In this document: positions 43,817 to 50,298 of the stretch, piece after piece
Layout: each line of letters opens with the position of its first letter
Numbering within the stretch: the stretch's first letter is position 1
Origin: Escherichia phage JMPW2
Length of the DNA: 50,298 nucleotides
Reading direction: 5' to 3' (one strand)
Sequence record: NC_041873.1
Notes under the pieces: generated by a model
Told to the model about the DNA's origin: nothing
Seen by the model: only the letters and a program-made list of their open reading frames with translations
The model's database searches: none
Program-made: the position numbers and the translations under genes

Positions 43817-44217
43817 TGAAACTTAAGAAAACGTGCATTGCAATTACGGTTGCTGTTGGTGTGATTTCTCTATCCGGTTGTTCGACGGCATCTGCTCTGA
43901 GTGGTTTACTTTCTGACTCCCCGGATGTTACGGCGCAGGTTGGCGCTGAGAACACAAAACAACTAGCAGGAGTAACAGCAAAGGCGGATGATAAGCGAGA
44001 AGTGAAGGTGAGTGATTCAAATATTGGCAAGATTGACTCATCCGTCAAGAAGTCCGTGGAGGTGTCAACCATTCAGGCCAACACGGTTAACGCTGAAAGC
44101 ATCACAGTAACCAAATCTGGAAGCTGGTACGATCCTGTGGTTTGCTGGATTCTAGTTTTTATTGTCCTGTTGCTGTTTTATTTTTTAATTCGTAAGCACG
44201 AAAAAAAGGAGGCGTAA
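43816..44217 (+). CDS. unimolecular spanin (lipoprotein signal plus C-terminal TM)
   Basis: N-terminal lipobox LSGC and C-terminal helix VVCWILVFIVLLLFYFLI, the T1 gp11 architecture. Confidence 0.65.
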   Translation: MKLKKTCIAITVAVGVISLSGCSTASALSGLLSDSPDVTAQVGAENTKQLAGVTAKADDKREVKVSDSNIGKIDSSVKKSVEVSTIQANTVNAESITVTKSGSWYDPVVCWILVFIVLLLFYFLIRKHEKKEA

Positions 44218-44230
44218 GCCTCCTTTCTTA
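44200..44230. terminator. bidirectional terminator
   Basis: aggaggc gtaa gcctcct hairpin flanked by A7 and T-rich runs. Confidence 0.6.
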
Positions 44231-44339
44231 TTTGTACCTTTTGACGTGAAGTAGCAACTCCCCATCCTGATCGCAAAGATTGTGCTCACCGTCGTTATTG
44301 GCCCTCATCGAAGTGAGCAGTAGGCTAAGTAATCCTTGC

Positions 44340-44747
44340 TCAAATTCTTCTTTCGTAAGCTGGAGCCTTGCGCACAATTCGACGTTCCGATCTATCAATG
44401 TTTCTACGTTCGCCAAACAAGTCTTCATCACTCATTTCTCCAATGTGCATCATTTCCCACGTATATCGATTGTTGTAGCCATCAATACACATCAGCTTCA
44501 TCATTACCGGGCGCTTGATCTTTCCCTTGCACCAGTAAAATCCACCCTTGCAATCAAGATAACCCTCAGTCACGCAGCGTGCGCAAAACTCCTTAGACAG
44601 CGCGCTTGTAAATTCACGGCGAGTCATTCCGGCGGCCTTAGCAAATCGCTCACTTTCCTTGTGGGCGTATATAAATTTCGCTATGTGCTGTCGAGTGTAT
44701 TTGTCGTAACCTTCGCAGAACCTGAACAGATCTAAAAGAAGAAGCAT
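44340..44747 (-). CDS. hypothetical protein
   Basis: Track ORF; ends 112 nt before terminator, with a second open frame (44228..44431) continuing to it. Confidence 0.45.
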   Translation of the reverse strand: MLLLLDLFRFCEGYDKYTRQHIAKFIYAHKESERFAKAAGMTRREFTSALSKEFCARCVTEGYLDCKGGFYWCKGKIKRPVMMKLMCIDGYNNRYTWEMMHIGEMSDEDLFGERRNIDRSERRIVRKAPAYERRI

Positions 44748-44751
44748 ATTA

Positions 44752-46320
44752 TTAACCCATCAGTCGAGGATTGATGAAAACAATATCATCAATCCGGCAA
44801 GTGTAGTTCATCTCTTCGAGCGTGATCAGCAGGCTGTCGATTCGCTCAGCTACTTTTTGTTGACCGTTGAACGGCGTAACGTTACGGCACTTTGCAACAA
44901 TGCTATGAATAGGTGCGCGACCTTTGTTCTTCTTTGCGATCTCAGTGATAACATCAATCAGCTTACGAGATTCAGCCTCATCACCAGCATACCCGGCGGC
45001 GCTGGCAGACGACAGATAGGTTCTGGAAAGCTCATTGAAAATCATGATCGCTTCCTGCATTGTTTCAAGGTCAATCTCACGGTTGGAACGGTTCGGTGAT
45101 TCACCATCCCAGTTCTTGATTGTGTGAAGAACTGAAGCAATGCGCAAAGCGTGCTTATCGAACTTGCCGAGATGACCGCGTAGCATTGAGTGAGAGTATT
45201 TGCCCCCGGCTGCGAAATCCGGCTCCATAGCCTGGCGAGCAAGGTTTAATTCACGCATAGCATTACGGCTTACAGAGAGAACAACGTTGTCCTCCTTCAT
45301 AATGTTGTGCACAAGTCGATAATATTTACTCACCAATCCTCGATCGACTTCCTTATACAGTGCATCACCATTTTCATCGCAAAGAATACGAGTGCCTAAA
45401 AGAGGTTCCTCGCGAACCAATAGGAAACGCTCAGATACACCGATACCGCGCTGGCCTGCGTCCATGATACCCTTGATTGTTTCATCCTGCGCAATGACGC
45501 AGATCGAACCGACCGGGCAAAGAGATAAGTTATTGTCCTGATTTGAACGCGCAACCTCCATATGGTTTTTATCCCACGCCTTGAGGATAAGCTCGCTGTT
45601 TGATTTCTTATCAGAACCGCCATAAGTCAGGCCAAGCAATGTATTTATTGCCGTTGCCTCATCAGAGATTACGGAAAAGTGGCCTTGAACAGCAGCTACT
45701 TTCGCAAGACCTTCCGGTGTAGGATCTGATACCGCGAAAACAATATCAGCCATCTTCTTGATCTTCTCTTCCAGTTTTTCCTTGTCCTCGTACAGCGCCG
45801 CCGTCGTGTTACCCTTCGGATCGTTTTTGATTTCCTTCTCGATCTGACGTAGCTGACTGGTTAAACGGATACGTTCCTTTTTGCGCTCTTCATTCAGTCT
45901 CTGAATCTCTGCGCGCATAGGTGTAATCGCCGCTGAGTTAATCGCGGATTTACCTGTTGATGGTGGCTGGCTAATCACCATATAAAGAGCGGTCGGTTGT
46001 TCTTCTCCGTGATATTGCACCCAAAACTTCCCTAGCATCGCGGCTGAGATGCACCCAATGAAATGAGCGTACGCAGACGAAACAGGAAACTGTACAGACT
46101 CAGCTTTTGCTTTTGCATATTCGAATACCAGGTTATCGCCACCTAACGAAATCAGCGGGAACTTATCGTTTCCACTGTTGATATCGATCGGGTCTTGCCA
46201 AAACGAAACTGAATCCCCGTAGCTGTTTTCACGAATTGCGATCGCCACCGGATTAACTCCAGTGCTATTTGCGATCTCAATAATCTGTTGGTAATTCAGT
46301 TTTGGCTTAATATTAAACAT
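44752..46320 (-). CDS. P-loop NTPase (DUF3987-like, replication-associated)
   Basis: Walker A-like PPSTGKS; start at internal ATG (MFNIKP) with SD aaggag. Confidence 0.55.
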   Translation of the reverse strand: MFNIKPKLNYQQIIEIANSTGVNPVAIAIRENSYGDSVSFWQDPIDINSGNDKFPLISLGGDNLVFEYAKAKAESVQFPVSSAYAHFIGCISAAMLGKFWVQYHGEEQPTALYMVISQPPSTGKSAINSAAITPMRAEIQRLNEERKKERIRLTSQLRQIEKEIKNDPKGNTTAALYEDKEKLEEKIKKMADIVFAVSDPTPEGLAKVAAVQGHFSVISDEATAINTLLGLTYGGSDKKSNSELILKAWDKNHMEVARSNQDNNLSLCPVGSICVIAQDETIKGIMDAGQRGIGVSERFLLVREEPLLGTRILCDENGDALYKEVDRGLVSKYYRLVHNIMKEDNVVLSVSRNAMRELNLARQAMEPDFAAGGKYSHSMLRGHLGKFDKHALRIASVLHTIKNWDGESPNRSNREIDLETMQEAIMIFNELSRTYLSSASAAGYAGDEAESRKLIDVITEIAKKNKGRAPIHSIVAKCRNVTPFNGQQKVAERIDSLLITLEEMNYTCRIDDIVFINPRLMG

Positions 46321-46859
46321 CACAATAAACTCCTTAGTTGACGGCGTGAATGATACACCGTCAATGGTACACGCGTTTTGCAAAAAGTGCTATTCGATCC
46401 GTGATTCTCATGAAAACCGTATAGCCTTTCCGCTTCCTTCCTTGCTTTAGCCGCTGCATCCAGCGTCATGAAGGTCCCTAAGTGTTTTGTCTTTTTATTT
46501 ATGGTTATGTTTGCCGTGTATCTATTTGTTTTTTTATTCCAATACACTCCCATAACTCCTGTGTTTGATGACACTACTCCCTTGTTTCTTAGGTTGTCTT
46601 GCCTAGTTACTAGCCTGAGATTCTCAATTCTGTTATCGTCTCTTTCATGGTTTATGTGGTCTACATCCATTCCTTCTGGTATGTTTCCGTAGTGTATTTT
46701 CCATACTATTCGATGGGCGTATTCAAATACACCTCCTGGAAAACATATTGACCGATAACCTTTTTTATTAACAGTTCCGGCAAGTAGATTTCGTCTTCTT
46801 CCGATTCTCCACTCTTTCCAGTACAGTCTCCCGCTAACGTATTTCAGTTCATCTTTCAT
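46320..46859 (-). CDS. HNH homing endonuclease with AP2-like domain
   Basis: DVDHINHERDDNRIENLRLVTRQDN plus SNTGVMGVYWNKKTNRYTA; third paralog. Confidence 0.75.
   Translation of the reverse strand: MKDELKYVSGRLYWKEWRIGRRRNLLAGTVNKKGYRSICFPGGVFEYAHRIVWKIHYGNIPEGMDVDHINHERDDNRIENLRLVTRQDNLRNKGVVSSNTGVMGVYWNKKTNRYTANITINKKTKHLGTFMTLDAAAKARKEAERLYGFHENHGSNSTFCKTRVPLTVYHSRRQLRSLL
46339..46393 (-). promoter_or_regulatory. palindromic box plus stem-loop (minus strand)
   Basis: Minus-strand atagcactttttgcaaaac, hairpin gacggtg...cgccgtc with TGTATCAT, SD taaggag. Confidence 0.55.
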
Positions 46860-48010: not shown

Positions 48011-48327
48011 TTTTTACCGTCCCATGTTTGATATGCCGTAACCAGGTTAATGCTATGGTCGAACTCGTCAACGCTAAGCGATCCAATTCGAACAAGCTCC
48101 TTGTTGTGCTTAATGTCAATCATCAGGCTGTATGGATGACCTGGCACGTATTTAAATAGACGCTTGCTGTCGGCAATGTCTGCGTTGATTCCGTAGAATC
48201 GGCCTACTGCCGCCTTAACGCGCTCCATGATGTTTTTTTCGTGGATTGCCGCCGCGTTATTCAGTGCCGCAACCGTGCTTCCGTTAATCTTCGGTGACTT
48301 CGTTGTGATTTTGTAAGTGTGGTTCAT
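48007..48327 (-). CDS. hypothetical protein
   Basis: Internal ATG (MNHTYK) of track ORF 48007..48393 with SD ggggg. Confidence 0.5.
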   Translation of the reverse strand: MNHTYKITTKSPKINGSTVAALNNAAAIHEKNIMERVKAAVGRFYGINADIADSKRLFKYVPGHPYSLMIDIKHNKELVRIGSLSVDEFDHSINLVTAYQTWDGKK

Positions 48328-48343
48328 TATTCCCCCTAACCAG

Positions 48344-48544
48344 TCAGGATAGCTTTCGAGCTTCATCAACGATAACAGGCTCAAGGCGTTCAAGTCGAAC
48401 GCGGAACGTGTTCATAAATCCATCGTTATTCTTCAATAACTCGAAAGCGTCCGTAGCTTCAATGGCGCTACTACCCATGTAAGAGATCACGCGCTTCTGT
48501 GTCTTTCGTGAGATCGCCACCACTCGGTAAATGTTATCGCTCAT
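48344..48544 (-). CDS. hypothetical protein
   Basis: Internal ATG (MSDNIYR) of track ORF 48344..48628. Confidence 0.45.
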   Translation of the reverse strand: MSDNIYRVVAISRKTQKRVISYMGSSAIEATDAFELLKNNDGFMNTFRVRLERLEPVIVDEARKLS

Positions 48545-48905
48545 ACAATGCCTCCTTAACACGGTCCGCAATGCAGGAGTTGACGGTGATTGAATAGTTA
48601 GCCACGCCCCACAATGCGACGTTTCCAAGCTCGGTACGCATAGATGGGTTATTTAGCTGGATGATTGTCTCGCCAGTATCGTTATCGACGAAACGAGATG
48701 CGCCAGAACGGTCCACCACGCGCGTTACGCGGTTAACACACTCCATTGCATCACTTACACCGTAATAAGAGCTTAGAGCGGCTCTCACGGCTTTCTCTTG
48801 CTTGTTGTAAATCTTTCGCGCGATGTTCTCGATCGCAACGCGCTCTTTTTCGTCAGTCTGTATTGCCGTGCTTGCTGAGAAGTCCAGGTCAGTGAGCTGC
48901 TTAAA
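48534..48905 (-). CDS. hypothetical protein
   Basis: Internal ATG (MFKQLT) with SD acgaggaaag; module upstream. Confidence 0.5.
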   Translation of the reverse strand, partial: FKQLTDLDFSASTAIQTDEKERVAIENIARKIYNKQEKAVRAALSSYYGVSDAMECVNRVTRVVDRSGASRFVDNDTGETIIQLNNPSMRTELGNVALWGVANYSITVNSCIADRVKEALYER

Positions 48906-48930
48906 CATGATTCTTTCCTCGTTTGCTGTT

Positions 48931-48982
48931 GATGTGATGACTATACCAGCCACCCCGGGTGCGCGCTTAACAAAAGTGCTAT
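48931..48982 (-). promoter_or_regulatory. palindromic box plus -10-like element (minus strand)
   Basis: Minus-strand atagcacttttgttaa then TGgTATAGT. Confidence 0.5.
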
Positions 48983-49168
48983 TTAGAATTTTACATCTTC
49001 AACAAGCTCGACAAATTTGTACCCCAGGCGATAGGAGTCGCCGAACAACAATAACCCCATAAATTCATCTTTGGTTATCGACTCCTTACCAACTGTTCTA
49101 AGCTCTCCGTTGTGAATAACAGTATCGCCGATCTTGATTTCTGATTTATGCACTAATTTCGTTTTCAT
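48983..49168 (-). CDS. hypothetical small protein
   Basis: Track ORF; weak RBS. Confidence 0.4.
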   Translation of the reverse strand: MKTKLVHKSEIKIGDTVIHNGELRTVGKESITKDEFMGLLLFGDSYRLGYKFVELVEDVKF

Positions 49169-49183
49169 TTGTTAGCCAGTTAA

Positions 49184-49369
49184 TTAAAAGAATGCTACAT
49201 AGTTTGCAATGCCTTTTGCGTCGTCGTTAGGCATCGCATTGACAGCCGGGTCGTAACCCGCTTCTACCTTCTGCTTTGCAGATTCTTCGTTGTATCCCCA
49301 AATAACCAGGATTTTAACTACGTTTTCTTTGTTCAGGACTTTAAGGTCTTTAGTGATGCGACGTGCCAT
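49184..49369 (-). CDS. hypothetical small protein
   Basis: Internal ATG (MARRITK) with SD gaggaaaaa; module upstream. Confidence 0.45.
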   Translation of the reverse strand: MARRITKDLKVLNKENVVKILVIWGYNEESAKQKVEAGYDPAVNAMPNDDAKGIANYVAFF

Positions 49370-49390
49370 TTTGTTTTTCCTCAATCTCGT

Positions 49391-49446
49391 TTCGATGAGG
49401 TAATTATGCCAAATCACGCAGATCGAGTTTTAACAAAAAATGCTAT
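49391..49446 (-). promoter_or_regulatory. palindromic box plus stem-loop (minus strand)
   Basis: Minus-strand atagcattttttgttaaaac then gatttggcataattacctcatcg. Confidence 0.5.
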
Positions 49447-49447
49447 T

Positions 49448-50134
49448 TTAGATAGCTTTAAAAAATCCCCTGGGTGATAGAGATCGTATCAGCTTCGTTT
49501 TGGCAGACTTGCCGCCCAGCTTGTTTTGCTGTGCAGAGTACCCGTCAGGCAGGCTTACAGGTTTTCTCTCGGGCATGACAAAATCGTCAGAGGTCCACAG
49601 ACAAGTTTTCTTCGGGTAAGCATCGCGCGGCGCAATATACATCGGGAACCAGGGGTGCGCGTCATCCTCAGGAAGATAGCCGCCGTACTCCCAGGGATTG
49701 AAGGAGTGATTTGGTTTTCTCCACGCAGACGACAGGACGCTCACCGGATTCTCAATGATGTAAGTCACACCAAGCTCCTTACCAATGTTCGCAGCTATCC
49801 GAGCGGTGGCAACAGCCTTCTCCTGGAATAACGGATCACGTTCACGCTTACTGGCAAAGTGACGAGCACCACTAACAGCCAGGTCAGTGCATGGAGGGAA
49901 AGCCATAATAAAATCCGGCTTGCCATACACACCCGCGATCGCGTCACGTTCGAACTTCTCATCAATAAAGACGTTCACATACTCAATGTTCGGATGCTCC
50001 ACCCTGGCGTTGTACTTTGCATAATCTCCGTGATCGGCCCCGTCAAAGTTGAAGCACATCACCTTATGACCTTGCTTTGCCAGTTCATGACCAGCAAGAC
50101 CGGAACCGTCGAATAGTGACCAAATTAACTTCAT
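49448..50134 (-). CDS. C5-cytosine DNA methyltransferase (Dcm-like)
   Basis: Motif I LFDGSG, motif IV FPPCTDLAVSG, ENP(V)-type motif YIIENPVS; conserved leader upstream. Confidence 0.7.
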   Translation of the reverse strand: MKLIWSLFDGSGLAGHELAKQGHKVMCFNFDGADHGDYAKYNARVEHPNIEYVNVFIDEKFERDAIAGVYGKPDFIMAFPPCTDLAVSGARHFASKRERDPLFQEKAVATARIAANIGKELGVTYIIENPVSVLSSAWRKPNHSFNPWEYGGYLPEDDAHPWFPMYIAPRDAYPKKTCLWTSDDFVMPERKPVSLPDGYSAQQNKLGGKSAKTKLIRSLSPRGFFKAI

Positions 50135-50152
50135 TGCTGCTTCCTCTTCTGA

Positions 50153-50213
50153 TTGGTTGATGGCCAGAACCATACCCCGACAACCTGATCGAGTCGTTAG
50201 CAAAAAATGCTAT
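50153..50213 (-). promoter_or_regulatory. palindromic box plus leader upstream of dcm-like gene
   Basis: Minus-strand atagcattttttgctaac then CAACCAATCAGAAGAGGAAG and ATG 50134. Confidence 0.5.
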
Positions 50214-50298
50214 TCCAATAATTGCTCATTATTCCATCAATATCGGAATAGGTGGAATAATTCTGATTGCGATTGATTGCAAATGATGAAACGTGATT

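Follow-up and report, generated by a model that had tools for sequence, protein, structure and literature searches.

Genomic context of the locus

The locus lies where two blocks of genes face each other in the window, that is, the whole stretch of DNA analysed (50,298 nt). A rightward lysis cassette, with genes for a pinholin, a SAR endolysin and a u-spanin, faces a leftward block made up of a DUF3987 helicase gene and a first open reading frame, ORF1, and a bidirectional terminator lies between them (Table 1). A second leftward frame, ORF2, overlaps the 3′ end of ORF1 and continues to the terminator. An earlier note on this DNA had placed two overlapping leftward frames here, at 44340..44747 and, from a GTG codon, at 44228..44431, and had described the second as running up to the terminator. 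These positions were confirmed: the TAA stop of ORF2 (44230..44228) abuts the hairpin, which on the minus strand begins at this stop codon; an operon's last gene would be expected to end in this way.

Table 1. Coordinates of the features at the ORF1/ORF2 locus (window positions).
Feature	Position	Strand	Description or basis
DUF3987 helicase/ATPase gene (T1 CPTT1_071)	44752..46320	-	Pfam DUF3987, E 3e-42; T1 annotation
ORF1	44340..44747 (including stop)	-	ATG start, 135 aa; T1 CPTT1_070/ST10 'HTH domain-containing protein'
ORF1 predicted winged-helix core	44412..44747	-	residues 1-112; conserved part
ORF1 tail		-	residues 113-135; basic, poorly conserved
GGAG, Shine-Dalgarno-like	44438..44441	-	inside ORF1 Gly-Glu codons; 9 nt before ATG 44428, 6 nt before GTG 44431
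Out-of-frame overlap	44340..44428	-	89 nt; ORF1 tail residues ~107-135 and ORF2 residues 1-30; ORF2 in +1 frame
ORF2	44228..44428 (including TAA stop)	-	66 aa from the probable start ATG 44428..44426; 7.6 kDa, acidic, pI 5.2
ORF2 N-terminal peptide from ATG 44428			(M)KTCLANVETLIDR
ORF2 alternative start	GTG 44431..44429	-	67 aa, 44228..44431; in-frame ATG one codon later
Bidirectional rho-independent terminator	44201..44229	both	terminator scan; RNA fold; T1 annotation

The helicase stop lies 4 nt before the ORF1 ATG, and no terminator is annotated or was found between the helicase gene, ORF1 and ORF2. These three genes, which are neighbours on one strand and run up to the terminator without another between them, therefore probably form one operon. 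The terminator is common to this leftward operon and the rightward lysis cassette, and its hairpin and U-tract fold with a dG of -22.6 kcal/mol (z -5.4; none of 200 shuffled sequences folded as well).

The whole window corresponds to a T1-type Tunavirus (IMGVR_UViG_2974570372_000001). Over 651 bases around the ORF1/ORF2 locus it is 99.8% identical to four phage T1 records, and the sole difference, at 44154, is outside both ORFs. The first 1.2 kb (1-1200) are 98.8% identical to T1 and the window is 1462 bp longer than T1, while the last 2 kb (48300-50298) match IME18 best, at 93.8%, with no T1 record at 95% or above. Because of this match at the right end, the window can be classed from its sequence as a mosaic T1 relative and not T1 itself.

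The upstream gene, ORF1

ORF1 matches the family PHROG 2794 along its full length (E 2.1e-66, residues 2-129 on profile positions 1-128 of 129). The name 'YdbL', which its relatives bear, was taken from record annotations only. A Pfam scan returned no family for either ORF1 or ORF2, and when PDB sequences were searched with an ORF1 profile, no match had an E below 0.3. The predicted fold of the ORF1 core is a helical bundle followed by a beta-hairpin wing, which superposes on solved winged-helix domains; as modelled, the core is a winged-helix (wHTH) fold and a predicted DNA-binding domain.

The conservation of ORF1 is confined to this core. Among 16 diverse homologues that were aligned, D107 and F111 are invariant within the motif S/D-D-E-x-L-F, whereas the tail that follows the conserved "LF" varies from 1 to 41 aa and is unalignable across genera; in the model of ORF1 the tail has low pLDDT. 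Complete homologues can be as short as ~111-113 aa (111 aa in Rogue1) or as long as the 153 aa of Webervirus. In distant phages, tblastn conservation of ORF1 ends at residue ~113, exactly where the conservation of ORF2 starts.

The downstream frame, ORF2

The length of ORF2 is by itself not beyond chance, since a 151-aa antisense ORF (44280..44735, plus strand, TTG start) is open over the same DNA, and ORF2 was therefore compared with its relatives. The antisense ORF was rejected as a gene: it has stops in some T1-like phages and only 49-111 open codons in distant relatives, and is most likely a by-product, at the sequence level, of coding on the sense strand.

ORF2 matches PHROG 9539 (also VOG8724) across the whole of the profile (E 1.3e-31, 109 bits, residues 3-66 on positions 1-64 of 64). 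A tblastn search with ORF2 matched 689 phage records, of which ~630 have less than 60% amino-acid identity and belong to other genera, such as Klebsiella Webervirus, Tempevirinae and Salmonella, Cronobacter and Enterobacter phages. In these ~630 Drexlerviridae genomes the amino-acid identity is 37-54%, across genera with low DNA identity. At the other extreme, phage CLB_P3 has an annotated 66-aa protein that is 98% identical to ORF2. Furthermore, an AlphaFold2 model of ORF2 built from only 13 sequences reached a pLDDT of 87.8 and consists of two helices and a beta-hairpin.

The pattern of substitution is that of a coding sequence. Downstream of the ORF1 stop, where only ORF2 is read, 11 T1-like sequences have 8, 2 and 29 variable sites at the three codon positions (36 each), and 20 codon columns with synonymous changes only stand against 9 with amino-acid changes, compared with 1:28 and 0:30 in the other two frames. 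Similarly, 30 distinct Webervirus sequences have 3, 1 and 13 variable sites there (18 positions each). Moreover, the position of the ORF2 stop is fixed in relatives while the ORF1 stop wanders. ORF2 is thus judged to be a real gene under coding selection, belonging to a conserved family restricted to Drexlerviridae, because of its tblastn matches across genera and this coding-type codon-position pattern, not because of its length.

Alternatively, the 112 nt that separate the ORF1 stop from the terminator might be an untranslated 3′ region that is kept for RNA-level or other reasons and is open by chance. The four T1 records (AY216660, NC_005833, MK213796 and MN153797) all lack an annotation for ORF2, alternate-frame ORFs of such length are common here, and the antisense frame that shares its wobble positions also has 19 synonymous-only against 11 changing codon columns. 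However, the antisense frame is broken or shortened in relatives, as described above, whereas ORF2 retains amino-acid identity where DNA identity is low, a fixed stop, a match to a protein family and a confident fold from few sequences; in some relatives it is even found intact with a new start codon behind an inserted gene (see below). A non-coding origin for ORF2 is therefore regarded as very improbable.

No proteomic or ribosome-profiling data for ORF2 were found in the literature, and a search for papers on T1 YdbL and on DUF3987 in Drexlerviridae found none that deals with ORF1 or ORF2. In the KanT1 paper (PMC13164509) the lysis cassette is discussed, but the ORF1/ORF2 pair is not. From the comparisons, it is likely that both the ORF1 and the ORF2 proteins are actually made.

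One split gene or two genes

The earlier note had favoured a single frameshifted gene of ~170 aa that one indel would restore, and had left open a mutation in this genome or two genuinely overlapping genes. A word-indexed search for homologues of ORF2 found just 4 close matches, which are uninformative on fusions, and was replaced by an exhaustive profile search of 1.84 billion (1.84e9) representative proteins. This recovered 20 members of the ORF2 family, all of 49-73 aa and none (0/20) fused to an ORF1-like domain.

These results bear directly on the idea that a frameshift mutation or a sequencing error split an ancestral ~170-aa gene, leaving a pseudogene or an artefact. The geometry alone would fit, as one indel within 44340..44431 joins the two frames. 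However, the ORF1/ORF2 region is base-for-base the same in four independent T1 records, the two-frame layout recurs at all the Tunavirus, Tempevirinae and Webervirus loci examined, both parts are under purifying selection, and an intact fused homologue is lacking among the proteins searched. As such, the chance that the locus is a broken gene is considered negligible. The second option raised earlier, that of two overlapping genes, is the one that gained support, from the coding selection on ORF2, its stand-alone family and the independent occurrence of the two genes. ORF1 homologues that end earlier, at ~111-113 aa, and are followed by a separate conserved small gene were the very outcome that the earlier note had named as speaking against a frameshifted gene.

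The overlap and the start of ORF2

The two frames are offset by 316 nt, which puts ORF2 in the +1 frame relative to ORF1. They share 92 nt if ORF2 begins at the GTG and 89 nt if it begins at the ATG. The ATG at 44428 is embedded in the conserved S-D-E codons of ORF1. In every lineage examined with a +1-frame overlap, this ATG is formed from GAT and the following G in the S/D-D-E motif of ORF1, and the widely conserved N-terminus of ORF2, M-K-N-Y/F-S, is the +1 reading of D-E-E-L-F in ORF1. A GGAG, GAGG or GGGGAG is kept at the same place in Tunavirinae and Tempevirinae relatives. ORF2 thus most likely starts at this ATG, judging by the sequence signals, to give a protein of 66 aa. The conservation of the embedded ATG is nevertheless weaker evidence than it looks, because it is partly forced by the conserved Asp-Glu codons of ORF1, and because GAT-G is also present in the metagenomic contig L073, although ORF2 is in another frame there.

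The Webervirus phages differ in that their ORF1 tail overlaps ~55 of the 67 ORF2 codons (~164 nt) and that, while the ORF2 ATG is kept, no Shine-Dalgarno-like motif was found upstream of it (L003, L030 and other loci, ~1450-1480). Initiation of ORF2 in these phages may rely on translational coupling or be independent of a Shine-Dalgarno sequence.

A smaller share of sites varies in the overlap than on either side of it (9 of 86, compared with 39 of 108 where only ORF2 is read). Counted in the ORF2 frame, the variable sites of the Webervirus overlap number 6, 5 and 15 by codon position; synonymous-only and changing codon columns stand at 9:13 in the ORF2 frame and at 2:19 in the ORF1 frame, which indicates little constraint on the ORF1 tail. 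Because the overlap varies at ORF2 third positions and ORF1 is so rarely spared amino-acid changes, the ORF1 tail appears to evolve largely as a passenger of ORF2. The tail looks conserved in Tempevirinae, where ALRRKF compares with ALRKRY even after the insertion of a homing-endonuclease (HNH) gene, and it may therefore not be a pure passenger in every lineage. In the ORF1 homologues that carry this insert, the basic tail is still similar (ALRKRY versus ALRRKF) though ORF2 no longer overlaps there. Examination of the locus as an overlapping pair found selection on ORF2, which has its own ATG and GGAG, together with variable sites of 8/4/30 by codon position in the ORF1 core and little constraint on the ORF1 tail within the overlap.

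Natural variants that separate the two genes

Several relatives carry the two genes in other arrangements. In Rogue1 (Rogunavirinae; JQ182736, L080 901-1268) a 111-aa ORF1 ends in "...DDQLFA*" and is followed by the terminator and the spanin gene; no ORF2 is present in Rogue1 or Rogunavirinae, and the Asp codons of the motif are GAC GAC, which leaves no ATG in the +1 frame. In the metagenomic contig L073, ORF1 ends in "...DEDLFV*" at a GTATGA junction with a 4-nt ATGA overlap, and the frame of ORF2 relative to ORF1 is -1 instead of +1. ORF1 has 113 aa and the overlap is 26 nt in L075, while in L029 an ATG lies 7 nt after the ORF1 stop and directly before the ORF2 core. Among relatives with overlapping genes the length of the overlap ranges from 4 to ~164 nt. 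Furthermore, tonnikala (Warwickvirus) and BEK12B (Hanrivervirus) have a gene for an HNH homing endonuclease between the ORF1 and ORF2 homologues. Both genes are intact there, and ORF2 has acquired a new start after the insertion (M-E-S-K-L-I-D). Shigella phage 2019SD1 was given less weight than these two phages; its gene order around the HNH insert is odd, and the ORF2 homologue is on one strand while the HNH and helicase genes are on the other.

The same variants help to assess a programmed +1 (or -2) ribosomal frameshift near the LFG codons, which would join the winged helix to ORF2 in one protein of ~170 aa, made either as the chief product or in addition to the two unfused proteins. It would account for the way in which conservation passes, in distant genera and over only a few nucleotides, out of the ORF1 frame and into the +1 frame, for the lack of a Shine-Dalgarno sequence for ORF2 in Webervirus, and for the fact that both frames are open across a window in every lineage where the genes are adjacent and overlapping. 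However, the overlap holds no X XXY YYZ heptamer, in agreement with the earlier remark that no canonical slippery heptamer is visible, neither ORF has a homopolymer of at least 5, and there is no stop or conserved hungry-codon context at the switch point, where the junctions of distant lineages share only the SDE-LF motif codons of ORF1. The shift needed is +1 and not the common -1, and the relative frame is not constant, being +1 in T1, Webervirus and Tempevirinae and -1 at the ATGA junction of L073. Moreover, the HNH gene parts the two genes in tonnikala and BEK12B with each intact, ORF1 is found without ORF2 in Rogue1, no natural in-frame fusion is present among the 1.84e9 proteins, and an ATG is always available for ORF2. 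A programmed frameshift is hence most unlikely, and the evidence argues against a fusion as a conserved product.

Taken together, the comparisons demonstrate that ORF2 is conserved and under coding selection, that each gene occurs independently of the other and that a fused form is missing from the sequences searched. The two frames are very probably two independent conserved genes on one leftward transcript that ends at the terminator, with an ordinary overlap and no frameshift. The functional core of ORF1 would end at about residue 112, with the motif S-D-E-D-L-F-G. ORF2 would be translated from its own ATG, which is made by the GAT-G of the Asp-Glu codons of ORF1, with the GGAG 9 nt upstream inside ORF1 as its likely ribosome-binding signal. 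Past its core, ORF1 would read through the 5′ part of ORF2 in the other frame as far as the next stop, and the resulting 23-aa basic tail would largely be a passenger. There is only a slight chance that a minor, lineage-specific wHTH-ORF2 fusion is made by an unconventional +1 shift near LFG, or that strict translational coupling of ORF2 to ORF1 sets the proportions of the two proteins in a wHTH-ORF2 complex that works together with the DUF3987 helicase; the long T1-type overlap would then not be neutral.

An apparent in-frame ORF1-ORF2 fusion in Citrobacter phage HCF1 (MN545971; L067/L070), with EMMCIG... upstream of ORF2, was rejected and not used, because the frame of the ORF1 remnant is broken, the ORF1/helicase block is on the opposite strand and the record bears the flag UNVERIFIED_ASMBLY. 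Just upstream of ORF2 in this phage, 'EMMCIG' is followed in another frame by 'EMSDNELF', a remnant of the ORF1 C-terminus. The arrangement reflects either an inversion or a misassembly.

Comparison with known systems and implications

Both proteins belong to existing PHROG families, and homologues of ORF2 are already annotated in many relatives. ORF2 matches the whole profile of PHROG 9539/VOG8724, small hypothetical Drexlerviridae proteins such as tonnikala gp12 (YP_009901151.1) and the 66-aa protein of CLB_P3. Members of this family occupy the same place as ORF2, as the last gene before the terminator that faces the spanin gene, and are annotated in relatives but unannotated in T1 and in the window. 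The choice of start differs by record, with 49-aa TTG and 66-aa ATG versions in CLB_P3. Similarly, ORF1 is the gene known as PHROG 2794 or 'YdbL', a winged-helix protein encoded downstream of the DUF3987 helicase in T1-like phages, whose members differ in length only through the variable C-terminal tail.

The pair resembles other out-of-frame overlapping phage genes (ATGA-type or overprinted), in which two genes on the same strand are read in different frames and the start and Shine-Dalgarno sequence of the downstream gene lie inside the upstream one. Compared with the usual phage overlaps of 1-4 nt, the 89 nt here are longer, and the start codon lies inside a conserved amino-acid motif of the upstream protein. 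The likeness to genes with programmed frameshifts (+1 as in prfB; -1 as in dnaX or the phage tail-chaperone G/GT genes) is limited to two overlapping frames and conservation that switches frame. Unlike those genes, ORF1 and ORF2 have no shift site and no conserved relative frame, ORF2 has its own start and stands alone, and ORF1 is found by itself. Apart from its fair length, the overlap is thus of the ordinary kind between neighbouring out-of-frame genes in compact phage genomes, and it points to no new mechanism.

The T1 reference annotations omit a conserved gene of 66 codons, and T1 would therefore have one gene more than is listed. Gene-content comparisons or knockouts at the 3′ end of ORF1 would unknowingly hit ORF2. 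More generally, natural variants such as gene loss, homing-endonuclease insertion and a changed relative frame allow an overlap to be told apart from a frameshift.

Some further observations concern the surroundings of the pair. The helicase ORF as listed for the window (44752-46383, minus strand) begins at a TTG at 46383, which adds 21 codons to the gene as annotated in T1 (44752..46320 in window positions). In several Tempevirinae the HNH insert sits exactly at the ORF1/ORF2 junction, namely in tonnikala (NC_049817; L071, 998-2019), BEK12B (L079, 617-1511) and 2019SD1 (L072), and the 'KLID' codons with which the ORF2 core begins are present on both sides of the insert. Finally, many Tunavirus relatives, including CLB_P3, ADB-2, IME18, SH6 and LeonhardEuler, have an insert of ~295 bp between the ORF2 stop and the spanin gene; absent from T1 and the window, it carries an extra leftward ORF of 216 nt (BPP3_15, VOG10338; CLB_P3 locus 1581-1796).
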